Part shown: positions 3,248 to 20,858 of the stretch, in pieces
Layout of the letters: the number at the start of each line of letters is the position of its first letter
How positions within the stretch are numbered: position 1 is the first letter of the stretch
NCBI RefSeq assembly: GCF_000016745.1
Contig: NC_009483.1
Span: 1,320,001-1,352,000, forward strand
Direction of reading: 5' to 3'
Source: Geotalea uraniireducens Rf4
GTDB taxonomy: Bacteria > Desulfobacterota > Desulfuromonadia > Geobacterales > Geobacteraceae
DNA length: 32,000 nt
Notes under the pieces: model-generated
The model's input: only the letters and a program-made list of their open reading frames with translations
What the model was told of the DNA's origin: nothing
Database searches by the model: none
Made by a program: the position numbers and the translations under genes

Positions 3248-3275
3248 CAATCGCCTCCTTTGCAAACAGGGTGAA

Positions 3276-3971: not shown

Positions 3972-4026
3972 GGAGATGTTAATATCACGCCGGCGGGTAA
4001 CAATGCAATGAAGAACGTCTGTGAAT

Positions 4027-5304
4027 CTAGAGCCTGACCAGGTGGACTGCGCAGGAGATGCAGGGATCGTAGGCGCGTACCAGCATTTCGAGCTTCAGTT
4101 TCAACTCAGCCTCGTCTGCACCTTCCATTTCCCTGGCAAGGGCCAGCAGATCACGTTCCATGGCTGCCTGGTTGATGGCGGTGGGGGTGATGATGTCTGC
4201 GGCCGTGCAGAACCCCCTGTTGTCGAAGCTGTAGCTGTGGATGAGAACTCCCCTTGGCGCCTCGGTGGCGGCGCTGCCGCTCCCTTTTCGCGGCGCGATA
4301 GAAACCGGTCTGTCAGGTTTTGTCTCGAAGCTCAAAAGGGTGGCTATGATCTCCAGGGAGCATTCTACGGCCAGAATCAGCTCTATGGCCTGGGCCAGAT
4401 TGTTGCCCCGGATGTCCGTGTCAATCAGTTTTTCCCGCGCATCAAGAAAAGCCTGATTAGCCATGGTTGTCAGCCCCATTCCCACATTGAGCCGGGCTAG
4501 TGCGCCGACGATGACGGCTTCTCCTTCGAAGCGGCTTTGCTTGGCATAGGAATGGCCGATGACCTTTTCCGGTAAGGCTTCCCGGTAGTTCGAGGCCATG
4601 AAGGATCGACCGTTGCTTAAATCCAGCCTGTCGCCGAACAGCGGAGATGATGTTTCCCCTTGCACGGCCATGAATATTGAACGCGGCAGAGGGGGGCCGG
4701 GAACGGCGAATGAAGCGAACAGATTGCAAGCTTCGATGGTGTCGGGGAGGATGGTTTCGAGTGCCACTTGTAGTTCCCGTAATCCCGCGTGGTTGACCCG
4801 TTTTCCCATGCCGCCGGGGACGATGTTCACCGGGTGAATAAGCCGCCCCCCTACGGTTTCCTGTATCAAATTGCCAACTCCTTTTATCCGCAGCCCCAGT
4901 TTTAACAGTTCCGGCGCATGTGTTGCCAGGTCGGCAAAGCTTGCGGCATTATAGTAATCGGGCAGGGCAAGGCAGAAAAGATGGAGGGCGTGGCTCTGGA
5001 TATGGCCGCCGTTAACGATCAGTTCCCGGTAGAGGCGGGTCTCCTCGGAGACATCGATCCCCAGGGCATTTTCAACGGCCAGCAGGGACGTTACCCGATG
5101 GATTGTGGAGCAGAGGGAGCAGATGCGGCAGATGATCTCCGGCACCTCCTCGAAGCTTTTCCCCAAGAGGAGCGCCTCAAACAGCCGCGGCGGCTCAGTC
5201 AGCGCAAGTTCGACCCGTTCGGCCCGCTTGCCGTCCATGTAAACCCGGGCGATGCCGTGTCCCTCCACCCGGGTGAGGGGCTTTATCTCAATAACGTTGC
5301 TCAT
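4027..5304 (-). CDS. [NiFe]-hydrogenase large (alpha) subunit, cytoplasmic group 3b/sulfhydrogenase-like
   Basis: N-terminal RVEGHG, the RICSLCSTIH Ni-binding motif and C-terminal DPCISCAVH followed by only LVRL. GGAG RBS 7 nt upstream. Overlaps the small-subunit gene by 17 nt. Confidence 0.9.
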   Translation of the reverse strand: MSNVIEIKPLTRVEGHGIARVYMDGKRAERVELALTEPPRLFEALLLGKSFEEVPEIICRICSLCSTIHRVTSLLAVENALGIDVSEETRLYRELIVNGGHIQSHALHLFCLALPDYYNAASFADLATHAPELLKLGLRIKGVGNLIQETVGGRLIHPVNIVPGGMGKRVNHAGLRELQVALETILPDTIEACNLFASFAVPGPPLPRSIFMAVQGETSSPLFGDRLDLSNGRSFMASNYREALPEKVIGHSYAKQSRFEGEAVIVGALARLNVGMGLTTMANQAFLDAREKLIDTDIRGNNLAQAIELILAVECSLEIIATLLSFETKPDRPVSIAPRKGSGSAATEAPRGVLIHSYSFDNRGFCTAADIITPTAINQAAMERDLLALAREMEGADEAELKLKLEMLVRAYDPCISCAVHLVRL

Positions 5305-6043
5305 AGTCCCACTCCGGGTAGAAACGGCGCATCCTGCTGATGATCTCCTGGCGAGAGAATCCCTTTTTCAGCAGCAGCTCCATTTCCGCAGCGACATTGG
5401 CTTCAGCTGCCGGCCCCCGGCACCCTTCGCACTTTATGGAAACCGTCGGGCAGCGGGCATTGCAACCTGCCTGGATCAGGGGGCCGAGGCACATCTCGTT
5501 CCGCTCGATGAGGAGGCAGAGATTCTCGCGGTTGCGGCATTCCGTGCAGACAGGATAGCCGGGAAACACCGGCAGCGTGCCGTGCAAGATCGATGCAAAG
5601 GTTGTCAGGAGTTCCCCTTTCTCCGGCGGGCAACCGGTGATGGCAAAATCGACCGTAACAAAGCGCTGAAGCGGTCCGGGCGCAAAGGTCTTGATGCTAT
5701 GGGCGGAATCGCCGTAGATCGTTTCAGCCAGTTCCTTCCGCGATTCGTTGTTTTTCATGGCCGCTATTCCGCCCCAGATGGCGCAGGTGCCTATGGCGAC
5801 GAGAAGGCTGCTCCGGTTGCGCAAGTTGATGAGCGTTTCCAGGTCTTCCGGCGTTGAAACGGCTCCTTCGACAAACGCTACGTCCAATGGCCCGCATTCA
5901 TCACTCCCTGAAAGCCCCATGGGGAACCAGGCGAAGCGGAACCGTTCAGCCACCTGCGGCAGTTCCTCTTCGCAGTTGAAGAGGGTGAGCTGGCAGCCGG
6001 AGCAGGCGGTAAGCCCGGCGATGGCGATGACCGGCTTGGTCAT
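5288..6043 (-). CDS. [NiFe]-hydrogenase small (delta) subunit
   Basis: MTKPVIAIAGLTACSGCQLT... carries the proximal-cluster CxGC motif and further Cys clusters. The ATG at 6043 overlaps the TGA of the upstream gene (ATGA). No Tat signal is present, which fits a cytoplasmic enzyme. Confidence 0.85.
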   Translation of the reverse strand: MTKPVIAIAGLTACSGCQLTLFNCEEELPQVAERFRFAWFPMGLSGSDECGPLDVAFVEGAVSTPEDLETLINLRNRSSLLVAIGTCAIWGGIAAMKNNESRKELAETIYGDSAHSIKTFAPGPLQRFVTVDFAITGCPPEKGELLTTFASILHGTLPVFPGYPVCTECRNRENLCLLIERNEMCLGPLIQAGCNARCPTVSIKCEGCRGPAAEANVAAEMELLLKKGFSRQEIISRMRRFYPEWDYEQRY

Positions 6044-6888
6044 AAGGCCCCCTCGATGGTTTTCAGGTCGCTGTAGCGGAAAACCGGTCCGTCGATGCAG
6101 CAGAGCAACTGTCCGACGGCGCAGTGGGCACAGCGCCCCAATCCGCATTTCATCCTTCTTTCCAGGGAGAGGAGGATGCGCCGGTCGGAAAAACCCAGCC
6201 CCTGCAATTCGCCGATGATGCAGCGATAGAGTGCGGGAGGACCGCAGACGGCTGCATAGCAGTTGTCTGCGGTAATGGGCACCCCACGCAACAGGTCCGG
6301 AAGGAGACCGATATTGCAGCTTGGTTCACAGGCACTCTCTTCGGCGGCAAAATCGACGGTCAGCATCAGCCGCATGTCCCGGCGGCAGGCAAGTTCCCTC
6401 AATTCATCGCGGAGCAAGAGGGCGGAAGGCTCCCTGGCGCCGTACATGAGGGTAATCGACCCATAGGCATCCCTCTGTTCAAGGAGGTGGCAGAGAAGCG
6501 AATGGAGCGGCACGATGCCGAGACCTCCGGCCAGTAGCAGGATGTCCTTGCCGGCCATCTCCGCTATGGGAAATCCGGTGCCGAAAGGTCCACGGATGCC
6601 GACCACATCCCCCTGCCGTGCCTTGTGCAGCTGGGAGGTTACATGCCCCACCTTTCTCACGCACAACTCAAGGGCGCCGTCATTTCCCGGCGGGTTCAGG
6701 GGAGAGAAGGGGGCTTCCCCGGCAGCCGGCGCTGAGACCTGGACGAACTGTCCGGGAACGAAGGTAAAGTCGCGCGCTGCCTCCTCGTTCATCAGCCGCA
6801 GCCGGAAGAGCGCCGTGTCGCCGGAGATCGGCTTGATCTCAACAATCTCGGCCGGTGACGGTATGTTTGTCATCTGGTCAACGGGCAT
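6040..6888 (-). CDS. hydrogenase gamma subunit: FAD/NAD(P)-binding oxidoreductase with a C-terminal 2Fe-2S motif (HydG/AsrB/PyrK-like)
   Basis: Ferredoxin-reductase-type fold pattern (FVPGQFVQV, LLLAGGLGIVPL) and C-terminal MKCGLGRCAHCAVG...C. GGAG RBS 7 nt upstream of ATG 6888. Confidence 0.85.
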   Translation of the reverse strand: MPVDQMTNIPSPAEIVEIKPISGDTALFRLRLMNEEAARDFTFVPGQFVQVSAPAAGEAPFSPLNPPGNDGALELCVRKVGHVTSQLHKARQGDVVGIRGPFGTGFPIAEMAGKDILLLAGGLGIVPLHSLLCHLLEQRDAYGSITLMYGAREPSALLLRDELRELACRRDMRLMLTVDFAAEESACEPSCNIGLLPDLLRGVPITADNCYAAVCGPPALYRCIIGELQGLGFSDRRILLSLERRMKCGLGRCAHCAVGQLLCCIDGPVFRYSDLKTIEGAL

Positions 6889-6945
6889 TTCCCAACTCCA
6901 TTGGTCGCTGAACGGAGTGAAACAACTAACCTAAAACCGGCTTTT

Positions 6946-7074
6946 GCCACGAATTACACGAATAAACACGAATCAAATCAAAAACTTTGAAAAATGTTGA
7001 CAAAACCAATGAGGTGAACTTGGTTTTTGCTGTAACAGTTTGGTTTATTTGTGCAAATTCGTGTTATTCGTGGC
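6946..7074. repeat. 129-bp imperfect palindrome built from CACGAAT words, inside the hydrogenase operon
   Basis: Left arm is GCCACGAAT-TA-CACGAAT-AAA-CACGAAT. The reverse complement of the right arm is GCCACGAAT-AA-CACGAAT-TTG-CACAAAT. The AT-rich centre carries an inner hairpin, CAAAACCAA...TTGGTTTTTG. It lies in the 204-bp gap between the beta and gamma subunit genes. Confidence 0.8.
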
Positions 7075-7092
7075 TGACTGCGTTTTTTAGGA

Positions 7093-8076
7093 CTAATCCT
7101 CTTGTTGGAAAAGTTCCTGCAGGTCGATCTTCACCGGGCAGACCTCCCGGCAGCGCCCGCAGCCGACGCAGGAGACAACCCCTCTGAGCGGACCGAAACC
7201 GAGGTATTTGTGGATAAACCGGTAGCGAAACCTTTCCTGCCGGGTCTTGCGAAAGTTATAGCCGCCGGCGATCTCGCCGTGGGATTTGAAGAGGCAGTTA
7301 TCCCATTCCTGGATGCGCTGTGCTGTCCGGCCGTCAAGATCGCCGTATTCCCTGATGTCCAGGCAATAGCAGGTGGGGCAGCAGAGTGAACACGCGCCAC
7401 ATGACAGGCAGCGGTCGGCAAAATCATCCCAGAGGGGGCTTTTCGGGAACGTTTCCTGCCGCTCTGCCGCTTTTCGGATACGATCAGCCACCTTTGCCAT
7501 CCGGGTCTGCAGCGGCGCGGCCGTTTCCGGTCCTTCGGACAGAGAGGACAGCCCGGAGCTGATCGTCTTCCCTCTGGGACTTCCCTGGCGCAGACAAAAT
7601 CCTCCCTCCACCTTTTCCAGGTAAATATCGAAATTGACCGGGACATCGGTTCCCATTTCACCGCAGAAGCAGAATTCGTCGGCTTCACAGGAAAGCCCGA
7701 TCAGGGTGAGTGCGTTACGCCTTGCCCGGTAAAGAGGGTCGGGCCGGTCTTGGGTGAAAACCCGGTCCAGGTAGGAGATAGCGGCCAGGTCACAGGGGTG
7801 GAGGCCGAACAGGATTATTTCCCCGGTGGCAACCACTGGCCGGCTGTAGCCGCAGCCGGGGGCAAAATTGAGCAGAGGCGTTCGTGGCGGAAAAAGGTAC
7901 TTTTTGGGGGGGATGAGGGTGCGCCGATAATCCAAGCGAAGGTCTGAGCTGGAAGCTATGGTGGTAAAGGCCGGTACGCCGTCTTCGGTCAGCGTCGGAC
8001 CGTGAATTGCGCCGAATTGGGTTAGTTCCTCAAGAAAGCTCTGGAAAGACTCGTTTGCCAGGAAGTCTTTTGCCAT
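7093..8076 (-). CDS. hydrogenase beta subunit: 4Fe-4S dicluster protein (HydB/AsrA-like)
   Basis: Carries CLSCGACSLCCPTCYC and CVGCGRCREVCPV ferredoxin motifs. A GGAGG RBS precedes ATG 8076. It is the first gene of a beta-gamma-delta-alpha order, as in Pyrococcus sulfhydrogenase. Confidence 0.85.
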   Translation of the reverse strand: MAKDFLANESFQSFLEELTQFGAIHGPTLTEDGVPAFTTIASSSDLRLDYRRTLIPPKKYLFPPRTPLLNFAPGCGYSRPVVATGEIILFGLHPCDLAAISYLDRVFTQDRPDPLYRARRNALTLIGLSCEADEFCFCGEMGTDVPVNFDIYLEKVEGGFCLRQGSPRGKTISSGLSSLSEGPETAAPLQTRMAKVADRIRKAAERQETFPKSPLWDDFADRCLSCGACSLCCPTCYCLDIREYGDLDGRTAQRIQEWDNCLFKSHGEIAGGYNFRKTRQERFRYRFIHKYLGFGPLRGVVSCVGCGRCREVCPVKIDLQELFQQED

Positions 8077-8100
8077 AATTGCCTCCGAGTGAATATCATA

Positions 8101-8129
8101 ATTCTAGCGTGAATTTGGTCGGAGGCAAG
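8101..8129 (-). promoter_or_regulatory. candidate sigma70 promoter of the hydrogenase operon
   Basis: The minus strand reads CTTGCC-N17-TAGAAT, ending about 25 nt before the ATG at 8076. Confidence 0.3.
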
Positions 8130-8144
8130 ATGTAAAAGGTGAGA

Positions 8145-8312
8145 AACTATTCAGCATATCCCGGAGCGCGGGCATCCTGCCTGCGTTTCAAGCGGATGTA
8201 TCGCTTGAATTGGTTACGAGCAAACCGTATTCGGGCATAAACCCGCCCGAAACACGGGCAGGATGCCCACGCTCCTGAAAACCAGTCTGTTACTTTGCCG
8301 TGCTGAATAGTT
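8145..8312. repeat. 168-bp GC-rich nested inverted-repeat element between the tolC-like gene and the hydrogenase operon
   Basis: The outer 12-bp arms are perfect: AACTATTCAGCA 8145-8156 and TGCTGAATAGTT 8301-8312. The inner 19-bp arms are GGAGCGCGGGCATCCTGCC 8163-8181 and GGCAGGATGCCCACGCTCC 8257-8275, with 1 mismatch. Internal hairpins include TTCAAGCG-gatgtat-CGCTTGAA. Confidence 0.75.
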
Positions 8313-8357
8313 ACAGATGGAATCACACTGACACGATTCAGGCCGCATCGTCGTGGC

Positions 8358-9902
8358 CTATTTGTTCTGGAACGAGTCCGCCGAACTGAGTTTTTCGTAA
8401 AGGGAATCTCCTTCCTTATCCGAGACCTTGATCCCTTGTTTGTCCAATATCTCCCCGGTCGACCGCCAGAGCTGGGTGATTGCGTTGTTGTAGTCCGTCA
8501 GCGCCTTGATCTGGTTACCCTTGGCGGTTACCAGGTCGTTTTCCACGTCGAGTACGTCCTTGGTGGTCGCCAGTCCCACCTTGTTCTTCTTGATGAAGGC
8601 GTTGAGACGTTCTTCGGCAAAGGCCCTTCCCCGGTCGGTTACTTCCAGTTGCTTGTAGCTTGACTGGAGCGCCCTGATGGCGGTTTTTACCTCGTTGGCA
8701 ATGGAGGATTCCAGGCTTTGCAGCTGAGTCCGTGTCTGCTCAAGGGTTAATTTACTCTTGATGTAGTCATTTTCCGCTGCACGATTGCCAAGGGGATAGG
8801 TTAACTGAAGGCCGATCCCCCAGACCGGAAAGTCGCCGGAACTTATTTTTTCGATGTCACGGTTGTAGTGCTGATCCAGGCCGGTAAGGGCGACACTGGT
8901 GTTGAGGGCAAGATCGGGCAGGGTGCGATTTCTTGCCACCCGTGCCTGGAGGTCATTGGTTTTGATGGTCGCCCGTTGATTCAAAAGCTCGGGGCGTTCA
9001 GCCAGTGCCCGCGCCAGCGCCTCCTCTTCCACAATCGGGTAGCTTTGCCGGGTTGGCAGGTCGGTGATAAAAATATCGTTTCCCTTATCCAATTGTAAGA
9101 GCAGCCGCAATAAATCCATCTCGTCTTTGAGCGCCCGCTCGGCATCGATGATATCTTTTTCACGAGTGGCAACGCCGAATTCAGCATTCAAAATTTCCAT
9201 GGCCGGCAGGACCCCCGCCTTTACCTGGCCCTGGGTATCAGAGAGTATCTTCTGTGCCAGGGCGAGAGAAGTTTTCTTTACTTCCAGGTCTTCCCGCAGG
9301 CTATAGAGCTTGAAGCATTCGTTGCGGACCTGCGCTACGGTGTCGCTCAGCTTGGTTCTGAACCGGTCGAGCGTCCCTTCCTTGGCAAATCGCGCCGCGT
9401 TGATGTTCAACTCGGTGGCTTCCTTGCCGAAGTTTTTCAAGAGCGGCTGAGTGAAGGAAAGGGTGAGGTCCGACTGGTAATAGTTCGCGATTATTCCTCT
9501 CTGATCGGCATTGCTGGTGTTCCAGATGTTGTTGAAGGCCAATCCCACCGTGCCGCCGGTCTGTACGAGCTGGCTGGCGCCCGCATTGAATTGCACTGTC
9601 TGCTGGCGGTCCGTGGTCGCACCTGTAATAAAAAAGTTGGCGGGCAGGGTGGTGGAGTGGGTGTAGTTAGTCAGCGCATTCAACAAGGTGTCGTAGATCC
9701 CGAGGTTTCTGCGGATATCCGCCTCGGCCATGGCGGGGTTGTAAAGTTCCGCCTTGACGTCCAGGTTCTTTTCCACCGCAAGCTTGATGGCATCCTTAAT
9801 GGACAGGTTCAGCGGGCCTTCCTGTGCCAAAGCATTGTCGGCGCAATTAAAGAATAGAGCAGCAAGCAGAATGACAACGGTTTTCGTCCAATCAGATTTC
9901 AT
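8358..9902 (-). CDS. TolC-family outer membrane efflux protein
   Basis: Signal peptide MKSDWTKTVVILLAALFFNCADNALAQ. The protein has two-repeat OEP-like composition (LSIKDAIKLAVEKNLDVK..., long coiled alpha-helical repeats). It is the last gene of the efflux operon. Confidence 0.88.
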   Translation of the reverse strand: MKSDWTKTVVILLAALFFNCADNALAQEGPLNLSIKDAIKLAVEKNLDVKAELYNPAMAEADIRRNLGIYDTLLNALTNYTHSTTLPANFFITGATTDRQQTVQFNAGASQLVQTGGTVGLAFNNIWNTSNADQRGIIANYYQSDLTLSFTQPLLKNFGKEATELNINAARFAKEGTLDRFRTKLSDTVAQVRNECFKLYSLREDLEVKKTSLALAQKILSDTQGQVKAGVLPAMEILNAEFGVATREKDIIDAERALKDEMDLLRLLLQLDKGNDIFITDLPTRQSYPIVEEEALARALAERPELLNQRATIKTNDLQARVARNRTLPDLALNTSVALTGLDQHYNRDIEKISSGDFPVWGIGLQLTYPLGNRAAENDYIKSKLTLEQTRTQLQSLESSIANEVKTAIRALQSSYKQLEVTDRGRAFAEERLNAFIKKNKVGLATTKDVLDVENDLVTAKGNQIKALTDYNNAITQLWRSTGEILDKQGIKVSDKEGDSLYEKLSSADSFQNK

Positions 9903-9932
9903 ATCAACTATCCTTTTCTGAACATATTTGAA

Positions 9933-11158
9933 TTACTCGTATCTGAGCGCCTCGATGGGATTCATCGATGCAGCCTTTCTGGCTGGGTAGAAGCCGAAGA
10001 AAACGCCGACTCCGGCGGAAAAGCCAAAGGCGATGATGATTGTCTGCAGCGAAATAAGCGTCGGCCAGCCGATCAGTTGGGCAACGATGCGTGCGCCTGC
10101 AATTCCGAGCACCATGCCGATAATCCCGCCGCAGGTGGTGAGGAGCACCGCCTCGGTGAGGAACTGCAAGAGGATGTCACGCTGCTTCGCGCCGATCGCT
10201 ATCCGGATACCGATCTCCCTGGTCCGTTCCGTCACCGACACGAGCATGATGTTCATGATGCCGATCCCGCCGACGATGAGGGAGATGGATGCGACCGCCC
10301 CGAGCAGCATCGACATTACCTTTGAAGACTGTTCGGAGACGGCCAGGATCTCCGAGAGGTTCCTGATGGAAAAATCCACCTCGCGGGCGGGTCCTATCCG
10401 GTGGCGCTGGTTCAAGAGCGCAGTCACTTCCTCTTCAGCCTTCTTCAGGACTTCCGCGCTTTTGGCCTGGATCATCATCGCGCCGACAGTGTTGGGAAAC
10501 TGGCTGCCGAACAGTTTGCGCTGTGCGGTGCGCAGGGGAACGTAGATCACGTCGTCCTGATCCTGGCCTTGAGGGGACTGTCCCTTTTTATCCATAATAC
10601 CGATAACTGTAAAGGGGATTTTTTTGATGCGGATGATTTTGCCGACAGGATCAAGGTCGCCGAACAGGTTGTCGGCGACGGTCTGGCCGATCAGGCAGTT
10701 CTTTGTCGCACCGTCCACATCGGACTGGGAGATGTTCCTCCCCGCGACAAGCGGCCATTCCCTGACGGTGAGCATTTCCGGTGTTGTCCCCATGACGATG
10801 GTCGACCAGTTCTGGTTCCCGTAGACCACCTGGGCCGTTCCCCTGACCGTAGGGGCAACTTCTCCCACCGACGGGCATTCCGCCTTGATGGCCTTGGCGT
10901 CGTCGTAGGTAAGGGTCGGCGTGCCGCCGGAGCCGGAGCGCATCCCCCCGCTGGTGGTTGAGCCGGGGATGACCAGGAGGAGGTTGCTGCCGATGCTGGA
11001 TATCTGGTCGGAGATCATTTTGCTCGCCCCGGCGCCGATGGCCACCATTGCTATGACCGCGGCGATGCCGATAATGATGCCGAGCATGGTTAAGAGGGCA
11101 CGCATCTTGTTGACCCGGAGCGCCCGCATGGCGATGAGAAGGCTTTGCAGGAAAGTGG

Positions 11159-14447: not shown

Positions 14448-15674
14448 TCAAGATACTTCCACATGCCTCACCCCTTCCGGCCGCCAGGCCGGGGAGATGA
14501 CGCCGGCCCCCTTCTTCTCGTCGATCAGGCTCCCGTAGGTCACCGTAAAATCCCCGAAACGGTCGTTCACCATATCCATCGCCGCGGTGGCCAGGGCCTT
14601 TTTCCGTTCCTCGACAAAGAGAGGGAGCTGCTCCGTGTGGTGGCGCAGGTTGGTGATACGCACGCCGAGGAGGCGCACCGGCTGGCGGAGGTCTACGCTG
14701 TCCAGGAGCAGCACAGCCGCCTGGTAGATGTCGTCGCTTTGGTTGGTGTAGTTGCCAGCCGTTGCCTGGAGGCTGAAGGTGCTGAAATCGGCGTAGCGTA
14801 TGGTAAGGGTGACGGTCTTGCCCGCCACGGCATGCTTCCTCGCCCGTCTCCCCACCATCTCTGCGAGCCGGAGGAGGATGGCGAGGATCTCGCCTCGCTC
14901 CGTTATGTCCCGTTCCAGGGTCGTGCTGTGCCCCACTGATTTCACGTCCGGAGCCGCCTCGGCGGGGACGACCGGCGCATCATCGATCCCGAGCCCCATC
15001 CGGTGCAGCTTTTCGCCGACCACGCCGAAGCGCCTCGTCAGGATATGTACCGGAAACCGTCCCAGCTCGCCGCAGGTCCTGATGCCGAGCAAGGTGAGGG
15101 TGCGCTCCGTCTGGCGGCCGATGCCGCACAGTTCCCTGATCGGCAGGTTTTCGAGGATGGCGGCGACCCTTTCCTGGTGGATGACGGTCAGGCCGTCCGG
15201 CTTTTTCATCTCCGAGGCGAGTTTTGCGAGGAGCTTGTTCGGAGCAATGCCGATGGAGCAGGTGAGTCCGAAGCGGTGCCTGATGCGGGCCTTGATCAGG
15301 TGGGCGATGCGGGATGCGGAGCCGAAGAGGCGGAGCGAGCCGGTGATGTCGAGGAACGCCTCATCGATGGAGAACACCTCCACGAGCGGGGTATAGTCGT
15401 GGAGCATGGCCATGATCCGGCGGGAGATGGAGGTATATCTGCGGTTGTTGCCGGGAACGCAGATAAGGTCGGGGCACTTTTGCCGCGCCTCGAAGATCCG
15501 CATGCCGGTTTTGACGCCGTACCCCCTCGCCTCGTAAGACGCGGTCAGAATAATCGTCCGCGCAGATTTGCCGGTCACAGCCACCGGTTTGCCGCGCAGG
15601 GCGGGGTCGGTCTGCTGCTCCACGGAGGCGAAAAAGGCGTTCATGTCGATATGGAGGATGGTGCGCTGGGGCAT
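14448..15674 (-). CDS. dinB: DNA polymerase IV (Y-family translesion polymerase)
   Basis: MPQRTILHIDMNAFFASVEQ... and SIDEAFLDITG, typical DinB motifs. ATG 15674 lies 4 nt after the TAA of the upstream MNT gene. The track start at 15836 overlaps that gene and is rejected. Confidence 0.93.
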   Translation of the reverse strand: MPQRTILHIDMNAFFASVEQQTDPALRGKPVAVTGKSARTIILTASYEARGYGVKTGMRIFEARQKCPDLICVPGNNRRYTSISRRIMAMLHDYTPLVEVFSIDEAFLDITGSLRLFGSASRIAHLIKARIRHRFGLTCSIGIAPNKLLAKLASEMKKPDGLTVIHQERVAAILENLPIRELCGIGRQTERTLTLLGIRTCGELGRFPVHILTRRFGVVGEKLHRMGLGIDDAPVVPAEAAPDVKSVGHSTTLERDITERGEILAILLRLAEMVGRRARKHAVAGKTVTLTIRYADFSTFSLQATAGNYTNQSDDIYQAAVLLLDSVDLRQPVRLLGVRITNLRHHTEQLPLFVEERKKALATAAMDMVNDRFGDFTVTYGSLIDEKKGAGVISPAWRPEGVRHVEVS

Positions 15675-15678
15675 GGTG

Positions 15679-16050
15679 TTACATTTCATCTGTTTCTTGG
15701 CCGTCATTTCCGCCTGCGGGGAGGTTCGGTTTTTCATAAAAAACGATGCCGACACGCTGGATATGATCGATGAAGCCAGGGTCATCAATTTGATGCAGCA
15801 AGGAAAGGTCGATTTTATAGGGCAACAGCAGGTCATCCAGTTCAGTTTCGATCTTCAGCAGTTGTGAAAGCGTAACGCCTTTACCCCTGATGGTGAGGTC
15901 GATATCCGAGCCGTTGCGATAATTCCCTTTGGCGCGTGAACCGTACAGTATCACCTGCTCTATCTGCGGATGGGCGGCGAATACCCCGTTGATTTTTTCG
16001 ATGGTGGTTTGTTTTAGGCCGTATTTTAACTTCTCATTGTCATCCGGCAT
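15679..16050 (-). CDS. minimal nucleotidyltransferase (MNT, HI0073-like antitoxin of a HEPN/MNT pair)
   Basis: Carries the NTase motif LYGSRAKGNYRNGSDIDL. It overlaps the upstream HEPN gene by 11 nt. The C-terminal tail PNLPAGGNDGQETDEM looks like an extension. Confidence 0.85.
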   Translation of the reverse strand: MPDDNEKLKYGLKQTTIEKINGVFAAHPQIEQVILYGSRAKGNYRNGSDIDLTIRGKGVTLSQLLKIETELDDLLLPYKIDLSLLHQIDDPGFIDHIQRVGIVFYEKPNLPAGGNDGQETDEM

Positions 16051-16459
16051 TTTTCAGGTCCTGCATTTTCTTTTCAAAAGCCTTTGACAGATCATAATAA
16101 ATGGCGGTCACTTTCTCCGCTATTTCGTCGGCAACATCCTGGTTGTAGGTGTGCGACGTCATATTCCGGCTCTGGATCATCTCCATCCACCCTTCGCCAT
16201 CGGCAATCAGGTTCCTTCGAAAGGCCTCGCGGGTTGCATCACGGGAACCCGTGATCGAGGTGTTTCCCTGGTATTCGAAGTAATCCTTCATGACGTTCCA
16301 GGCCAGCTCATGGGTGAACTTAAAGGCTTGAATAAGACCTAGTTGCTCAAGTTGAGATAGGGGGCGCTGCCGGCTGAGTTCCACCGCTTTGTTCAGTTGC
16401 AACAATGCCTTTTGATAATGACTGAAACGTTGCTGCCAGCGGATGTCTTGGTGGTTCAT
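16040..16459 (-). CDS. HEPN-domain protein (HI0074-family nucleotidyltransferase substrate-binding protein; toxin of a HEPN/MNT pair)
   Basis: MNHQDIRWQQRFSHYQKALLQL... with the Rx4-6H motif in SRNMTSHTY. ATG 16459 is preferred over the GTG at 16474. Confidence 0.85.
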   Translation of the reverse strand: MNHQDIRWQQRFSHYQKALLQLNKAVELSRQRPLSQLEQLGLIQAFKFTHELAWNVMKDYFEYQGNTSITGSRDATREAFRRNLIADGEGWMEMIQSRNMTSHTYNQDVADEIAEKVTAIYYDLSKAFEKKMQDLKNAG

Positions 16460-16506
16460 GGTTTTTCCACGCACAGGTTTTGGAGGATAGGCTTCCAGCC
16501 TGTCAT

Positions 16507-16573
16507 GGCGGCGCAGCCGCCAACGCAGGCGAGACGCCTACGCCCCGTTATTTTTCATGCGAACGGTGGGGCG
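16507..16573. repeat. GC-rich hairpin cluster in the gap between the BsuBI-like gene and the HEPN gene
   Basis: GGCGG-cgcag-CCGCC at 16507-16521 and CGCCCCGTT...AACGGtGGGGCG at 16541-16573. The segment ACGCAGGCGAGACGCCTACGCCCC matches ACACGGGCAGGATGCCCACGCTCC of element 8145-8312 at 17 of 24 positions. Confidence 0.5.
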
Positions 16574-16612
16574 ACACGCTCCGGATACAGATTTCTTCGA
16601 GAAGCGGATCAG

Positions 16613-17116
16613 TTAATACCGTCCGAGAAAACGATCTCCATTGAAATGGATCATGTGCGTCGGCGCTTCCGCTATCCATACATCGGTTTCCCAGGAAATG
16701 TCAATCTCATGGCGGGAAAAGTCCGTCAGCGTGGGAAAGACTGATAAATAGCACCGTCCGGCGATGGAGGAAGCAAACCTTTCCGCCAGTTCTTTGCGCC
16801 GCACGGCGTTTATCGTGCCGTGACCCGTGACGGTATCGATGAGAAGAATCCAGTTTTTCGCAGGGTAATGAATGACCACATCCGGCATTTTGTCATGAAT
16901 GTCAACCTTAATGCCGAGGACAGAAAGTCCCGCTTTGTCGAAGTATCCGCACTTCCCGCCGGTATCGCTCACATACAGGACAACCCCACCCGGCACAAAC
17001 CGGGGGCCGAATTCATCGATGATTTTCATGATAAGCCGGTTGTGCTTCCCCGGCAGCAACTGAATGCTCTTGCCATGGGCGACAGTCAGCGGAATCATTG
17101 GCATTTCTCTTTCCAT
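16613..17116 (-). CDS. stand-alone BsuBI/PstI-type restriction endonuclease catalytic (C-terminal) domain protein
   Basis: LPGKHNRLIMKIIDEFGPRFVPGGVVLYVSDTGGK ... MPDVVIHYPAKNWILLIDTVTGHG ... ISWETDVWIAEAPTHMIHFNGDRFLGRY matches the remembered BsuBI/PstI RE C-terminal domain consensus. The frame is open for only 14 codons above the TTG at 17149, so no N-terminal recognition domain is present. Start is uncertain (17116, 17104 or 17098). A TATAAT lies at 17196-17191 on the minus strand. Confidence 0.7.
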   Translation of the reverse strand: MEREMPMIPLTVAHGKSIQLLPGKHNRLIMKIIDEFGPRFVPGGVVLYVSDTGGKCGYFDKAGLSVLGIKVDIHDKMPDVVIHYPAKNWILLIDTVTGHGTINAVRRKELAERFASSIAGRCYLSVFPTLTDFSRHEIDISWETDVWIAEAPTHMIHFNGDRFLGRY

Positions 17117-17217
17117 GCATTTCCCCGTCAGGCTTTCCCCCCAATGCAAAAGTTGTCGAATCCGGACTTTGAAAGCGTAGGAGGTAGTTAATTATACCTC
17201 ATCATCTTCTTGAATGC

Positions 17218-17243
17218 TACTTAAAGTCTGTAGACTCATAAGC
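17218..17243 (+). promoter_or_regulatory. C-box-like operator pair upstream of the controller-protein gene
   Basis: TACT-TAA-AGTC-TGTA-GACT-CAT-AAGC fits the remembered C.PvuII-type architecture GACT-N3-AGTC-N4-GACT-N3-AGTC with 3 mismatches. It ends 25 nt before ATG 17269. No SD precedes the ATG, suggesting a leaderless or near-leaderless transcript as in known C genes. Confidence 0.55.
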
Positions 17244-17268
17244 ATCATTCCTTCAAGATAGCCCAGTT

Positions 17269-17502
17269 ATGAGAAAGGCGAGTGAAAATATCAGGGCCAT
17301 TCTTGCCGAGAACATACGTAACTTCAGGCACAAGAAGAACTTCTCACAAGAAGAATTGGCTGAAAAATGTGGCCTTCACCGGACCTATATCGGTTCTGTA
17401 GAGCGTGGCGAACGTAACGTTACGTTGAGCACCCTGGAAGTGCTGGCGTCGACTCTCGGCGTCTCCGTACCGGAACTGTTAAGCAAAGATGCCAGGCCTT
17501 AA
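17269..17502 (+). CDS. XRE-family HTH protein of the R-M controller (C-protein) type
   Basis: 77 aa. NFSQEELAEKCGLHRTYIGSVERGERNVTLSTLEVLASTLGVSVPELL matches the GLHRTYIGxxERGERNxSL signature typical of C proteins. Confidence 0.85.
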   Translation: MRKASENIRAILAENIRNFRHKKNFSQEELAEKCGLHRTYIGSVERGERNVTLSTLEVLASTLGVSVPELLSKDARP

Positions 17503-17535
17503 GACCATTTCTTGTGTCAAAAGGACTATAGACTT

Positions 17536-17976
17536 ATGAGCAGCCAACAAACAGCCAAAGTTGCCGCAGAATTACTTGCCAGCACTGACCCTCTCGTTCG
17601 TATTCCTACCAAAAAGGAAAAAAGAAATTTGCTTATGGCTTTTGCAAGCAAAAACAAGGTTATTTACGGAAATGCTTTTGATGCAGTCAGGCTGCAAAAG
17701 AACATTGATTTGAATGATATTGAATCAGTGATACACAATATCGATTGCATAACCTTGATAGAAGTAAAATCAACAAGCAAGGAAAATATAGATGGCAGCT
17801 TTTCCGGATATTTCTTTGGACTGACTACGGCCGAACTATTAGTCGCTCAAAATCTTGGCGACAAGTACCGGTTTATTTTCGTAAATACCTTGACCGGTGG
17901 GTGTATGGAACTGAAACTGAATGAGATATTCGCTAAAGCTAAAGGCATTTATCCGCAATGGAGCATCAGTTTTTAA
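17536..17976 (+). CDS. small PD-(D/E)xK nuclease-fold protein (DUF3883/NOV-C-like), AT-rich
   Basis: NIDCITLIEVKSTSK (D...EVK) followed by FFGLTTAELLVAQNLGDKYRFIFV resembles the restriction-endonuclease-like EVKxT...LTxxE...Y.LY.V pattern. It sits directly downstream of the C gene, the position of R in C-R operons. The region is visibly more AT-rich than its flanks. An alternative TTG start lies at 17512. Confidence 0.6.
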   Translation: MSSQQTAKVAAELLASTDPLVRIPTKKEKRNLLMAFASKNKVIYGNAFDAVRLQKNIDLNDIESVIHNIDCITLIEVKSTSKENIDGSFSGYFFGLTTAELLVAQNLGDKYRFIFVNTLTGGCMELKLNEIFAKAKGIYPQWSISF

Positions 17977-18133
17977 CATTCTGAACTCATTTGTTTTTAC
18001 GCTCCCACCTGCCCCCCTTCACCCGCTCAACCCCGCCCATCAACTCACTCTTCTCCGGGGAGATCGCCTTAAAAAAATGGAATGTAAACTCAAATGGGTT
18101 TGACGGCATCGGCGCCTCGTTGTGAATCATCCC

Positions 18134-18230
18134 GCGCCCTGCCAGGGCGCTTACTATTTATCTTCCATTTATTCCGTGGGTTGCCGCGCTGCGGCTACCC
18201 ACGGCTGATTTCCATTGCCCCTTTGGGGCA
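18134..18230. repeat. cluster of three GC-rich perfect or near-perfect hairpins (REP-like)
   Basis: GCGCCCTG-c-CAGGGCGC at 18134-18150, CCGTGGGTtGCCGCgctGCGGCtACCCACGG at 18174-18204 and TGCCCC-ttt-GGGGCA at 18216-18230. Confidence 0.6.
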
Positions 18231-18287
18231 TGAATCCTTGAATTTGGATTTTTCCGACAATTGATCCCGATCCGGTGATTCTTTGGG

Positions 18288-18689
18288 CTACGTTTCCCAA
18301 TCCTCGATCTTCAAGCCATCCACGCGCGAAAACTCTCTTGAATTGTGTGTCACCACAACCGCTCCGTGTACTGACGCAATGGACGCGATCATCAAGTCGT
18401 TTGGTCCTATTGGCGTTCCCTGCCGGGAAAGTGTCGCACGTATTTCACCATATCTTCTGGCTGCATCATCATCAAAGGTGAGTGACTCGAAGTTGGCAAA
18501 CAGCTCCTCGATAAGCGCCAGGTTTTCCTCCGAACGGCTGCTCTTCAACGCTCCATAGTACAATTCGGCTTTTACAACCGAACAGAATCGCATTGTTACA
18601 GGATCTACAGTCAGGAAATGTTCTTTAACCCGGTTTTCGCCAGGGTTCAGGAAACGAATCCATGCATTCGTGTCAGGGAGAAAGATCAT
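18288..18689 (-). CDS. vapC: PIN-domain toxin VapC
   Basis: MIFLPDTNAWIRFL... with conserved acidic PIN residues and THNSREF near the C-terminus. It overlaps the upstream antitoxin gene by 4 nt. Confidence 0.88.
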   Translation of the reverse strand: MIFLPDTNAWIRFLNPGENRVKEHFLTVDPVTMRFCSVVKAELYYGALKSSRSEENLALIEELFANFESLTFDDDAARRYGEIRATLSRQGTPIGPNDLMIASIASVHGAVVVTHNSREFSRVDGLKIEDWET

Positions 18690-18919
18690 TTGAATTCCTC
18701 ACGGGTTTCATATTCCCCCTGTTCTTCCCGCACTACCGGCTCTCCGGCCCACGCACCGGCAAAACGCGCAAGCTTTGAAGCGGTTGCCTTGACAGCGCGG
18801 GGGGGCGGGGCCTCCTCATCGAGAGGGAGCAGGATGACCTCTACCCGGCGATGCTGCAATTCCTTCGGCATTTTTAATACATCCGGCAACTGTTTATACA
18901 CTTTTCGTATGGCTTCCAT
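18686..18919 (-). CDS. vapB: VapB-type antitoxin (DUF2281-like)
   Basis: 77 aa encoded immediately upstream of vapC. AGGAG RBS. The C-terminal FAGAWAGEPVVREEQGEYETREE is a typical antitoxin tail. Confidence 0.75.
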   Translation of the reverse strand: MEAIRKVYKQLPDVLKMPKELQHRRVEVILLPLDEEAPPPRAVKATASKLARFAGAWAGEPVVREEQGEYETREEFK

Positions 18920-19087
18920 TGTCTTTGCTCCTTTCCAATCGGAAGAAAAACCGGGGCAGCTTCATTTCCAGTCTGCCACATACTCTTCACGGGCGGCATC
19001 ATGAAAAATGAGTCTATCCATGCACCTTGCCAGTCACTCATGCCTGTTCCAGGCAAATGCCCTTTGCTTCCACCCCAATGCCCGCCT

Positions 19088-19525
19088 CTATCCGCCGAAA
19101 GAGTTTTCCACTATCACTGCAAGAAAAGTGGCAGGATCAACGATCCTGATTCCCTGAAATGATTTCAGGTCCTTGAGATGGCGGTCACCGGAGACGATGA
19201 AATCGGCTTTGCCCTCGATTGCGCAGACAAGGTACTTGGTGTCGTCGGCGTCCGCCTTGATGGGATCGAGGGGGAGCGTGCCGGGGGTGATGACGGCTAC
19301 CGCCCTCAGTTTTTTCACAAAATCGGCCAAGTAGTCGTCCGATCTGTTGAGGCGGTTACGGATCTTCGGGTAGGTGAGGACGCGCAGGATTTCATCGCAG
19401 ATCGTCTCGGACAGGAGGAGAATGACCTTTTCTTCCCGGACGAGCCGCATGATTGCATCAGGATTTGAGCCCGGCTTCAGCAGGGCGCTGACAAACTGGT
19501 TGGCATCGAGGACGACCCGCACCAT
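19088..19525 (-). CDS. PIN-family toxin (TIGR00305-like)
   Basis: MVRVVLDANQFVSALL... and DTKYLVCAIEGKADFIVSGDRHL, the pattern of stand-alone PIN toxins. It starts 4 nt after the YefM-like gene. Confidence 0.82.
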   Translation of the reverse strand: MVRVVLDANQFVSALLKPGSNPDAIMRLVREEKVILLLSETICDEILRVLTYPKIRNRLNRSDDYLADFVKKLRAVAVITPGTLPLDPIKADADDTKYLVCAIEGKADFIVSGDRHLKDLKSFQGIRIVDPATFLAVIVENSFGG

Positions 19526-19528
19526 CGG

Positions 19529-19795
19529 TTAGCGCCCTGCCGCACTGACGGCTTCCTCGACATCCTTATCAATGCTCTCTTCGTCGCCACCCGTTGCCTC
19601 TGTCTGCAATTCCTCGTACATGCGAAAGAACTCGTCCCGCTCCCGCTTCATACTCAGGTACTTCTCGATGGGAATGATTGCGACCAAGGGCTTCCCTGCC
19701 CGTTCCACGATGTATTCGTCGGACTTCAGCGCCACCTCGTTCATGACCTGGCCAAGGTTCTGGCGGACTTTGATGGCCGATACCTTTTTTAACAT
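19529..19795 (-). CDS. Phd/YefM-family antitoxin
   Basis: MLKKVSAIKVRQNLGQVMNEVALKSDEYIVERAGKPLVAIIPIEKY is a typical YefM N-domain. GAGGTG RBS. Confidence 0.85.
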   Translation of the reverse strand: MLKKVSAIKVRQNLGQVMNEVALKSDEYIVERAGKPLVAIIPIEKYLSMKRERDEFFRMYEELQTEATGGDEESIDKDVEEAVSAAGR

Positions 19796-19812
19796 TTCTT
19801 CACCTCGTGACA

Positions 19813-19861
19813 GTCATTACAACCATTATGGTCATTATGGTTGTAGTGACTGATTTGTCAA
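19813..19861 (-). promoter_or_regulatory. promoter plus palindromic operator of the YefM-PIN module
   Basis: The 38-bp palindrome GTCATTACAACCATTATGG/TCATTATGGTTGTAGTGAC (19813-19850) pairs 16 of 19 positions. The minus strand reads TTGACA (19861-19856)-N16-CATAAT, which overlaps the palindrome. Confidence 0.55.
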
Positions 19862-19914
19862 GCGGTAAAGAGACCTATGAAATTCGCAAATCGCAAAAGG
19901 TGCATAAATGTAAG

Positions 19915-20196
19915 TCACGTTTCCACCGTCGCCAGCTGCCAGATATGCGTCGTGGCGTTGTAGGTCAGCTCGTAGAGGTCGGCGCCGTCACTGACTGCGA
20001 AGTGCAGGCGGACGGCGCTTCCTTCCCGTTCATCCCAGCAGCAGGTGATCTCCTGCACGGTATGTTTTTGCTGACGCCAGTCGAACCAGACCGGTCTGAT
20101 GCGGTTGCCCGGCCCGAAGATGGCGGCGACCCGGATATGTTCCCGTATTTGTTGTAACATAATTGACGGTTCACCTTTCATGTCTTGTGAGGTCAT
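19915..20196 (-). CDS. small hypothetical protein translationally coupled to lexA
   Basis: ATG 20196-20194 overlaps the lexA TGA 20195-20193 (ATGA). The 93-aa sequence includes ...IRPVWFDWRQQKHTVQEITCCWDEREGSAVRLHFAVSDGADLYELTYN.... An alternative start is M13 at 20160. Confidence 0.6.
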   Translation of the reverse strand: MTSQDMKGEPSIMLQQIREHIRVAAIFGPGNRIRPVWFDWRQQKHTVQEITCCWDEREGSAVRLHFAVSDGADLYELTYNATTHIWQLATVET

Positions 20197-20798
20197 TCAA
20201 GCGAGCGGAAGATGCCGGTTACCTTGCCGATTATGTTCACCTCGCCGGCTTTTGCCTTGACGATGATCGGTTCCATGGCGCTGTTCTCCGGCTGGAGACG
20301 GATACGGTCCTTTTCCCGGAAGAAACGCTTCAGGGTGGCCTCGTCGTTTATCCGTGCAACGACGATGTCGCCGTTGTCGGCTGTTGCCTGGGGACGGACG
20401 AGGGCCAGGTCCCCGGAGCGGATGCCCGCCTCGATCATGGAGTCACCCTTGACCCGGAGGAAGAAGCAGTCAGCACCTTTGACTAGGGCACGGTCAACGG
20501 CGAAATACCCCTCGATGTCCTCGATGGCCGGCTGCAAGGCCCCGGCCCGCACCACTCCGACTATGGGGATGGAGGTGGCCGCGACTGCGCCGACGAGGAC
20601 GATGCCCCGGGAGCTGCCGGCGTTTCTGGTGATGAATCCCTTCCGCTCCAGGGCATCCAGGTGTTTCATGACGCCGAGGGTGCCGTTGATGCCGAGATGG
20701 CCGCCGATTTCCCGCAGGGTGGGAGGATAGCCGTGGCTTTCCAGGTGGGCGGAGATGAACGCGAGCACCATCTGTTGCCGGGGGGTGAGTTTCTCCAT
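20193..20798 (-). CDS. lexA: LexA repressor
   Basis: MEKLTPRQQMVLAFISAHLESHGYPPTLREIG (wHTH), an Ala-Gly cleavage region (VVRAGAL), and S24 peptidase motifs VKGDSMIEAGI and GDIVVARI...ATLKRF. ATG 20798 has a GGAG RBS. The track TTG start at 20819 is rejected. Confidence 0.93.
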   Translation of the reverse strand: MEKLTPRQQMVLAFISAHLESHGYPPTLREIGGHLGINGTLGVMKHLDALERKGFITRNAGSSRGIVLVGAVAATSIPIVGVVRAGALQPAIEDIEGYFAVDRALVKGADCFFLRVKGDSMIEAGIRSGDLALVRPQATADNGDIVVARINDEATLKRFFREKDRIRLQPENSAMEPIIVKAKAGEVNIIGKVTGIFRSLE

Positions 20799-20810: not shown

Positions 20811-20828
20811 AGTTGTCAAATGATAACC
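20811..20828 (-). promoter_or_regulatory. Geobacter-type LexA box
   Basis: The minus strand reads GGTTATCATTTGACAACT. The published G. sulfurreducens box is GGTT-N2-C-N4-G-N3-ACC (from memory). Only the last base differs. The box sits between the -10 hexamer and the lexA RBS. Confidence 0.6.
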
Positions 20829-20829
20829 A

Positions 20830-20858
20830 ATTGTACGGTGATAGTGTCATGCTGTCAA
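20830..20858 (-). promoter_or_regulatory. sigma70 promoter of lexA
   Basis: The minus strand reads TTGACA (20858-20853)-N17-TACAAT (20835-20830), immediately upstream of the LexA box. Confidence 0.65.

Follow-up and report, generated by a model that had tools for sequence, protein, structure and literature searches.

Gene content of the lexA-imuB-C-polY locus

The window analyzed here is a stretch of 32,000 nucleotides (nt) from Geotalea uraniireducens Rf4 (NC_009483.1, positions 1,320,001 to 1,352,000), and the locus in question is the SOS operon of lexA, orf93 (imuB-C) and polY (dinB), in which an islet of accessory genes lies between the second and third genes (Table 1). The islet is 4.24 kb long, contains nine accessory open reading frames (ORFs; 15679-19795), and fills the space between the stop codon of imuB-C and the start of polY. 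A first-pass annotation of this DNA had listed nine accessory genes between lexA-orf93 and dinB, on the same strand and about 4.2 kb apart, with all but two in the SOS orientation; the ORF map and Pfam assignments reproduce this list, with only the HTH and NOV_C-like genes on the + strand and the other seven of nine following the operon. The islet is compositionally distinct from its flanks. Its GC content is 0.50, compared with 0.61 for lexA-orf93 and 0.63 for polY, and the codon-level profile that the annotation had proposed gives the same result, with GC at third codon positions (GC3) of 0.40-0.73 for the islet genes (0.40 for the small + strand ORF) and 0.80-0.84 for lexA and polY (0.84 for polY). 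Two metagenome assemblies made independently (L001 and L083/L088; loci used for comparison are given by L numbers) repeat the gene order, with proteins 99-100% identical, so the arrangement is not an assembly artefact. Over 94% of its length, the BsuBI/PstI-domain ORF also matches a 167-amino-acid (aa) NCBI protein of Geotalea uraniireducens at 100% identity. Every ORF between orf93 and polY was assigned, and no recombinase or integrase was found among them with Pfam, PADLOC, or NCBIfam.

Table 1. Features of the lexA-imuB-C-polY locus, with positions in the window
Feature	Position	Strand	Evidence or remark
Predicted lexA promoter, TTGACA-17-TACAAT	20830-20858	-	11/12 consensus matches
LexA box GGTTATCATTTGACAACT	20811-20828	-	starts 30 nt 5' of lexA ATG; 1 mismatch to GGTTN2CN4GN3ACC
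lexA	20193-20798	-	Peptidase_S24 1.8e-36, LexA_DNA_bind 1.7e-22
orf93, taken as standalone ImuB-C gene	19915-20196	-	start overlaps lexA stop by 4 nt
Predicted Phd promoter, TTGACA-16-CATAAT, over palindromic operator	19811-19861	-	promoter prediction and inverted-repeat search
Phd/YefM-type antitoxin	19529-19795	-	PF02604; TIGR01552
PIN_3 toxin	19088-19525	-	PF13470 2.9e-24; TIGR00305
VapB-like antitoxin	18686-18919	-	no family match; 99% amino-acid identity to L003
VapC PIN toxin	18288-18689	-	PF01850 3e-18
IS200/IS605-family relic	18070-18268	-	left-end hairpins 18216-18230, 18174-18204, 18134-18150 and tnpA 5' stub
NOV_C-like small PD-(D/E)xK-type nuclease candidate	17512-17976	+	PF13020 22.5 bits, cut-off 22.1
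Xre-family HTH, restriction-modification (R-M) controller (C) protein type	17269-17502	+	HTH_3 4.4e-16; PADLOC Control_protein 1.9e-27
C-box-like operator AGTCTACAGACTTTAAGTAGCA	17214-17236		divergent intergenic region, 5' of HTH gene
BsuBI/PstI catalytic-domain-only ORF, 178 aa	16613-17149	-	PF06616 2e-49
REPIN	16478-16584		inverted REP units 16482-16502 (+) and 16526-16546 (-)
HEPN-type HI0074/NTase_sub_bind protein	16040-16474	-	PF08780 3.3e-47; TIGR01987 97.6 bits, cut-off 55.8
MNT Pol-beta-type nucleotidyltransferase	15679-16050	-	PF18765 7.1e-20
polY/dinB, GeoPolY-like Y-family polymerase	14448-15674	-	IMS and IMS_C domains

The first gene of the operon encodes a LexA with an S24 peptidase and a winged-helix DNA-binding domain, and its own operator lies upstream, just 3' of the near-consensus lexA promoter. 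The operator was located with the pattern GGTTN2CN4GN3ACC, reportedly the LexA motif. The GGTTATCATTTGACAACT palindrome is kept about 30 nt 5' of lexA in L002, L003, L005, L013, and L042 and lies 58-65 nt 5' of lexA in L006 and L007, and the Geomonas loci carry a related GGTT-N10-AACC box; this conservation 5' of lexA across syntenic loci backs the motif. The position of orf93 between lexA and polY is repeated in more than 60 related loci, and its product has a conserved C-terminal tryptophan (W86), as in the ImuB-C family. No significant match to orf93 was obtained in Pfam, NCBIfam, PADLOC, or a profile search of PDB sequences, and its naming as ImuB-C here follows from position, motif, and literature. 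The ImuB-C domain has about 80 residues and a conserved C-terminal tryptophan, with GSU0042 as its prototype (PMC3765255). The lexA-imuB-C-polY genes of G. sulfurreducens are described, where PMC6511836 cites Jara 2003, as DNA-damage-induced and a single transcription unit.

The contiguity of that operon is lost in the window, in which 4,240 bp and nine ORFs part imuB-C from polY. The MNT gene stops 4 nt short of the polY ATG at 15674. An alternative in-frame ATG at 15707, inside the MNT gene, is favored by one gene caller (L001: 419 aa); the homology of polY to L002 begins at about 15680. The polY gene is intact, and comparison with L082 gives 98% amino-acid identity and a third-position identity of 0.88, indicating that purifying selection on polY continues in relatives that carry the islet.

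Both toxin-antitoxin (TA) pairs of the islet have the type II layout of a small antitoxin gene directly 5' of, or overlapping, a PIN toxin gene, with 3 nt from the Phd stop to the PIN_3 start and a 4-nt overlap of vapB and vapC. VapC scores 128 and 106 bits against the NCBIfam VapC models, in both cases under the equivalog/subfamily cut-off. The Phd operator is a palindrome of 20+20 nt (arms 19811-19830 and 19833-19852, 90% complementary) that is conserved in L003. The HEPN protein carries the motif RNMTSH (Rx4H) and the MNT protein the motif GSRAKGNYRNGSDID (GS...DID), as is typical of a HEPN-MNT pair (type VII, HepT-MntA-like). Against the NCBIfam equivalog models the pair scores 46 bits for MntA and 16 bits for HepT (cut-off 60 each), and the HI0074 subfamily model alone is passed. 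The HEPN gene comes first in the window; mntA normally precedes hepT. Judging by the PIN domains, the Rx4H and GS...DxD motifs, and the Phd promoter with its operator, the TA pairs are intact. In the spacer between PIN_3 and vapB a 46-nt relic (19033-19078) is 85% identical to the DUF2281-PIN module of L003 (7116-7162). In L089 an internal vapC deletion of about 310 bp (3172-3261) leaves vapB intact and a 29-aa stub, a case of toxin loss in the same islet.

Variation at the imuB-C/polY junction among relatives

A polymerase-anchored scan with one genome per species gave 80 loci, and imuB-C and polY are both visible in 65 of them. The gap between the two genes, extrapolated from tblastn alignment ends, is 3-110 bp in 59 of the 65. 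In the closest species-level relative, L002 (PolY 93%; shared synteny TerC-CNNM-lexA-imuB-C-polY-PAP2-MarR-RND), the site is empty and the imuB-C stop overlaps the polY start (ATGA). Like ATGA or GTGA overlaps are present in L006, L007, and L013, and the empty sites of the syntenic group are those of L002, L004, L006, L007, L013, and L042. Because the closest relative has an empty site with overlapping genes, the islet is supported, at the level of sequence comparison, as an insertion interrupting a normally compact operon. The first-pass annotation was thus borne out in its view of an accessory islet inserted in a normally contiguous lexA...dinB unit, and the linkage of lexA with dinB stands; the unit itself is tripartite, and the islet splits imuB-C from polY, the two genes that overlap in the empty sites. 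The alignment with relatives that it had suggested for finding boundaries and target duplications defined the boundaries and showed no duplications. The junctions are clean against L002, and the repeat search found neither a target-site duplication nor a terminal inverted repeat at the islet borders. Identity between the window and L002 beside the junction is 0.87-0.94 on both sides, within the range of the remaining flanks, and no recombination scar in the form of imported divergent flanks was detected.

The same junction holds different cargo in six further species-level loci (L003, L005, L055, L071, L034, and L035). In L003 it is 5.7 kb long and collinear with the window, with extra MNT and DUF2281-PIN modules and a SEC-C protein. 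In L005 it holds a methyltransferase gene and a 351-aa ORF, along with a C protein that shares 79% identity with that of the window; in L055, a HEPN-MNT pair and truncated JetA/B/C, which are Wadjet genes; in L071, a major facilitator superfamily (MFS) transporter and a 191-aa ORF; and in L034, an opposite-strand ORF read as methylglyoxal synthase (mgsA). At 9770-9950 the Geomonas locus L035 carries a tandem pair of units, each about 90 bp long and with a G/C-rich palindrome (GGTCCCCCCCTTGTCAAAGGGGGGAC...). The metagenome contig L096, found via the small nuclease, has the order lexA-imuB-C-Phd-PIN_3-...-nuclease/HTH-PstI domain-...-HEPN-JetA-JetB-JetC, with JetA, JetB, and JetC (1-2346) co-oriented with the operon and extending past the fetched flank. 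In L017 a complete PstI-type R-M system and JetABCD (3371-9989) lie directly 5' of polY and are co-oriented with it, lexA being beyond the fetched flank. No tyrosine or serine recombinase was found among the ORFs examined in L003, L005, L055, L071, L034, L035, L096, and L017. A single core-gene junction with different accessory cargo across genomes has the character of a hotspot, and the imuB-C/polY junction is, on this comparison, a recurrent variable site in Geobacteraceae.

The islet modules differ in their histories. A neighbor-joining tree of CNNM, LexA, and PolY places the window with L082 and L002, their sister being the empty L004, and L003 lies elsewhere with L005. The L003 and L096 lineages, which have a collinear islet, show a core identity of 63-73%. 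Between the window and L003, third-position identity is 0.48-0.61 for the core genes, 0.65 for Phd and 0.62 for PIN_3, 0.47 for the HTH gene and 0.49 for the PstI-domain ORF, compared with 0.97 for vapB, 0.89 for vapC, and 0.87 for the small nuclease gene. A 750-bp VapBC block is 96% identical at the DNA level, with flanks at about 73%. The values of 0.87-0.97 against a core of 0.48-0.61 indicate that VapBC and the small nuclease gene were recently exchanged horizontally between lineages, whereas Phd-PIN_3 appears as old as the core divergence. The HEPN-MNT pair is only 86% identical to that of L082, for a core amino-acid identity of 98%, which suggests allele replacement. In L003 a 3' fragment of PIN_3 is duplicated after VapBC; together with the DUF2281-PIN relic and the vapC deletion of L089, this duplicate is read as a sign of recombination and decay among islet alleles.

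From these comparisons we consider it likely that a 4.24-kb mosaic accessory islet occupies the imuB-C/polY junction of a LexA-controlled translesion-synthesis operon, and that such islets are recurrent, with their modules turning over. Modules would most likely be gained, lost, and swapped as islet alleles recombine, homologously or illegitimately, with no dedicated site-specific recombinase, and imuB-C and polY would have lost their ancestral stop/start coupling. The opposite polarity, in which the islet-containing order lexA-imuB-C-[Phd-PIN_3...C/nuclease...HEPN-MNT]-polY is ancestral and compact operons result from losses that happened repeatedly, as when an empty allele replaces an islet, is in our judgment unlikely. 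Three deep lineages, namely the window clade, L003, and L096, do share the order of modules after imuB-C, the third-position identity of Phd-PIN_3 (0.62-0.65) is at about the core level, and for E. coli the dinB operon that includes yafNO was inferred as the ancestral form, in which deletions produced an ATGA overlap (PMC3105422). These points are set against the 59 of 65 compact loci, which fall in both paralogue groups and several genera, the emptiness of all six syntenic relatives named above, the clearly recent import of VapBC and the nuclease gene, and an islet GC3 well under that of lexA and polY. The annotation had named shared gene content in relatives, if ancestral and conserved, as evidence against an insertion; the islet is indeed not private to the window, being collinear in L003 and L096, yet the relatives do not show an ancestral conserved arrangement.

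Several points nevertheless weigh against a recurrent, recombining insertion. Since Phd-PIN_3 is as diverged as the core between lineages, that module may instead go back to an ancient insertion with precise losses since, several times over. Some other Geobacteraceae of the set have two lexA-imuB-C-polY loci (e.g. L003/L069 and L019/L043), and the gap sizes depend on the extrapolation mentioned above. The search for a target duplication, a terminal repeat, or a recombination scar found none of them, and the recombination mechanism is a proposal; likewise, all regulatory statements made below are inferred from sequence.

Hairpin elements and transcription of the islet

The two hairpin clusters recorded in the first-pass annotation (16507-16573 and 18134-18230) fold far better than shuffled sequence. 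As single-stranded DNA (ssDNA), positions 18125-18235 reach -32 kcal/mol, with z = -6.2 on the - strand and -7.6 on the + strand, and positions 16478-16584 reach -26 (- strand) and -27 (+ strand) kcal/mol, with z of about -3. The REP unit GGRGNRTAGGCNTCNNGCCTG has 4 matches in the window against 0.02 expected, and a second REPIN at 8163-8275 (GGAGCGCGGGCATCCTGCCTG and its inverted partner) forms a long hairpin of -40 kcal/mol (z = -7.4), indicating that the REP family is dispersed in the genome. Copies are also present in L082, in L003 5' of polY, and in L017 5' of jetA. Close variants of the islet were located through exact matches to the VapC and VapB proteins. In L082, a 195-aa Y1 transposase, a TPR gene, and a 104-aa gene lie between the element equivalent to 16478-16584 and the HEPN gene. 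This transposase scores 103 bits against NCBIfam REP_Tyr_transpos (cut-off 80), as a REP-associated tyrosine transposase (RAYT), and is flanked by GGRGNRTAGGCNTCNNGCCTG repeats; a cognate RAYT is thus present at the homologous position in a relative with 98% core protein identity and is missing from the window. The cluster at 16478-16584 is, by sequence, a REPIN, as it consists of an inverted pair of a dispersed REP unit that flanks a RAYT in L082.

The other cluster is the left end of an IS200/IS605-family insertion sequence (IS). Positions 18268-18077 differ by only a few substitutions from the segment that, in L090, L091, L092, and L089, precedes an intact tnpA and runs into its first codons. 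The tnpA stub extends about 50 nt from an ATG at 18130 and has a 1-nt insertion that shifts the frame and then a deletion, where homology ends; the left-end hairpins and this stub are all that remains of the element in the window. The intact TnpA of a relative (L090) has 148 aa and scores 66.6 bits against NCBIfam transpos_IS200 (cut-off 55). In L082 and L087 REPINs stand in place of the relic. The remark of the annotation that no integrase or transposase is visible holds literally, but its hairpin clusters are themselves mobile-element remains, namely a REPIN and the stub of an IS200-family tnpA. An Rfam scan gave nothing above the gathering score. The Acido-Lenti-1 RNA is a sub-threshold match at 18174-18230 (+ strand; 26.9 bits, gathering 37, E = 0.006), exactly on the IS200 left-end hairpin, and this Rfam motif may be related to transposon-end structures.

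These elements raise the alternative that the islet is the cargo of an ssDNA transposon, IS200/IS605 or RAYT-mobilized, that targets the junction. The islet does contain an IS200 stub and a REPIN, close relatives have TnpA and RAYT genes in intact form at these positions, and the palindromic repeats of L035 are in the same junction. However, both remains lie between modules and away from the islet borders, which have no hairpins or repeats; no Y1 transposase was found among the ORFs examined in L003, L005, L055, and L096; and multi-gene cargo is not known for REPINs and IS200 elements. We therefore hold this alternative to be very improbable and regard the REPIN/RAYT and IS200 elements as probable secondary colonists of intergenic spaces, not as the vehicle of the islet. 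As regards an integron cassette array or CALIN, in which attC sites separate the cassettes, the islet has no integrase, and hairpins occur at only two of the five module junctions, where homology to a REPIN and to an IS200 end accounts for both. The likeness to REPIN-RAYT and IS200/IS605 systems consists of the inverted REP doublet of a dispersed family, the REP-flanked RAYT of a relative, and the hairpins 5' of tnpA. The remains in the window differ in being non-autonomous, without a RAYT and with tnpA deleted after about 10 codons, and they explain the hairpins but not the islet.

The only credible LexA box is that at lexA. Across the window 10 one-mismatch palindromes compare with 8.2 expected, a chance frequency, and no LexA box was found 5' of polY in any islet-bearing locus. 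One such palindrome at 16232-16249 (GGTTGCATCACGGGAACC), within the HEPN gene and with one mismatch on both strands, is probably meaningless as a LexA box. No terminator-like site was found between orf93 and phd, and the only - strand terminator-like site before vapC is weak and lies within the 3' end of the PIN_3 gene. Read-through from the lexA promoter is accordingly placed here as plausible only for Phd-PIN_3 and VapBC: SOS transcription would probably run into the first pair and perhaps into the second. Past vapC three stable hairpins would lie in the way of the transcript, as would the REPIN and the HTH and nuclease genes, which form an operon convergent to it and have a terminator-like site on the + strand (18134-18150). 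A promoter within the islet is favored for polY because the hairpins, the antisense operon, and the REPIN obstruct the lexA transcript past vapC. This promoter would probably be in the divergent C-box region, where a TATAAT for the - strand is located some 20 nt from the C-box-like operator (near 17195), and would serve in turn the PstI-domain ORF, the REPIN, the HEPN and MNT genes, and polY. The distance from the REPIN to the HEPN start is only about 8 nt (GTG 16474) to 22 nt (ATG 16459), leaving no room for a separate HEPN promoter.

A different account of the recurrence is that the junction is a selected landing pad, in which defense and TA genes gather for read-through induced by LexA cleavage after DNA damage or phage attack. 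It generalizes the idea of the first-pass annotation that LexA-dependent read-through could couple the damage response to toxin or nuclease expression. The cargo is mostly co-oriented (7/9 genes in the window; in L003, L055, L071, L096, and L017, the majority of ORFs examined), it is enriched for TA, R-M, and Wadjet genes, and the stretch from orf93 to phd is free of terminator-like sites, which speaks for this account. On the other hand, each TA pair has or is expected to have an autoregulated promoter, the convergent operon and strong hairpins break up the islet, and some cargo, such as the MFS transporter and mgsA, is not defensive. Co-orientation is equally expected if insertions must spare polY expression, and thus would fit selection against polY silencing and selection for SOS read-through equally well. 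Selection for a landing pad is for these reasons thought improbable, and we give a similarly low weight to its fullest form, in which a LexA-gated junction would have its TA, R-M, and Wadjet genes switched on by LexA cleavage and polY re-wired to TA or C-protein control. Under the preferred reading of a mosaic islet with module turnover, the polymerase would probably be independent of the LexA promoter here, and if this is true the regulation of damage-induced mutagenesis may differ from the G. sulfurreducens model. Joint action is presumed for ImuB-C and the Y-family polymerase, and their genes, adjacent or overlapping in most relatives, are separated in the window. The presence/absence polymorphism between the window clade and L002 offers a natural experiment on a possible SOS-driven TA expression.

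Relation to known systems and the nuclease module

Hotspots for defense islands and TA genes flanked by core genes are a general concept of pan-genome studies, and the junction resembles them in its conserved flanks, variable TA, R-M, and Wadjet cargo, lack of a dedicated recombinase, and mosaic transfer. It differs in that the site lies inside an operon, between functionally linked genes, and not between unrelated core genes or at a tRNA. The nearest precedent is the dinB-yafN-yafO-yafP operon of E. coli, with the core-flanked accessory or defense hotspot as the general frame. In both cases a TA module is found in a LexA-controlled Y-family polymerase operon and is variable among relatives (PMC3105422; PMC2814082). 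The YafNO pair of E. coli is variably present, and where it is absent dinB and yafP overlap by ATGA (PMC3105422), the same overlap of flanking genes that the empty state shows here. In contrast to the E. coli operon, the inserted genes of the window lie 5' of the polymerase and part it from its promoter and from ImuB-C; they are nine genes in four or five modules, not one pair, with two antisense; and the junction holds R-M and Wadjet systems in other lineages. What is specific here is an intra-operon hotspot 5' of the polymerase with multi-module, recombining cargo that includes R-M and Wadjet in sister lineages. The locus is a second, independent case, after E. coli dinB-yafNO, of TA genes inside an SOS polymerase operon, and it defines a junction of accessory-gene turnover in a family of bioremediation interest. 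The window shares with G. sulfurreducens the genes of lexA-imuB-C-polY, their order, the LexA box 5' of lexA, and the lexA/imuB-C overlap, as far as the operon is described in PMC6511836 and PMC3765255. It differs in that imuB-C and polY are 4.24 kb apart, not adjacent, making co-transcription doubtful.

The nuclease module combines a C-protein-like HTH gene with a predicted C-box of its own. The 22-23 nt of the C-box-like operator are 95% identical to a site 5' of the HTH gene of L005 and to L017 2737-2758, where the copy adjoins a 72-aa ORF without a Pfam match. The small nuclease ORF probably begins with the ATG at 17536, for a length of 146 aa (the ORF call allows 154 aa), and its product is a member of a large family of unnamed 146-165-aa proteins. 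D49, E76, and K78 are invariant in 35 homologues. The structure model has a predicted local distance difference test score (pLDDT) of 91, and the fold search with it gave no match at E <= 1e-3; the matches are weak (E >= 8e-3) and nearly all PD-(D/E)xK, including the SPARDA nuclease domain, influenza PA-N, and Hjc. From these weak fold matches and the invariant D/E/K residues the small ORF is considered a candidate PD-(D/E)xK nuclease. The PstI-domain ORF aligns to positions 149-315 of the 317-residue PADLOC REase_II profile and is without the N-terminal domain. It could be taken for a simple pseudogene, an assignment that was not adopted given its numerous homologues of 160-180 aa, which are mutual best matches (P0002-P0012 and others). 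The contexts of these homologues are mixed (a TA/R-M island, an IS-disrupted R-M system, a prophage), often without a nearby PstI-type methylase, and the short forms may be either functional proteins or truncations that recur.

The likeness of the module to C-controlled type II R-M systems lies in a C-protein-like HTH gene, the conserved C-box directly 5' of it, and a gene with a nuclease fold next in order, and the related C protein of L005 belongs to a complete M/R/C system. The window differs in having no methyltransferase, a 146-aa nuclease whose family usually occurs with the HTH only, and a PstI ORF without the N-terminal domain. No methyltransferase domain was found in the nine islet ORFs with Pfam, PADLOC, or NCBIfam, nor was a methyltransferase found adjoining the homologous modules in L003, L082, L096, and L097. 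The module thus resembles a C-controlled nuclease unit but would not be classed as an R-M system, since the locus has no cognate methyltransferase; it may be a TA-like pair, an R-M system in decay, or something new. The recurrent trio of HTH, 146-aa nuclease, and short PstI-domain protein could be an undescribed TA-like or defense module. An HTH gene followed by a 146-165-aa PD-(D/E)xK-like gene is itself a widespread two-gene unit without an adjacent methyltransferase (L097, L098, L099), and is possibly an uncharacterized TA or defense module. The unit gives a weak PADLOC match to HEC-02B (E = 1.7e-4), and in L099 it lies beside a full-length PstI-type endonuclease.

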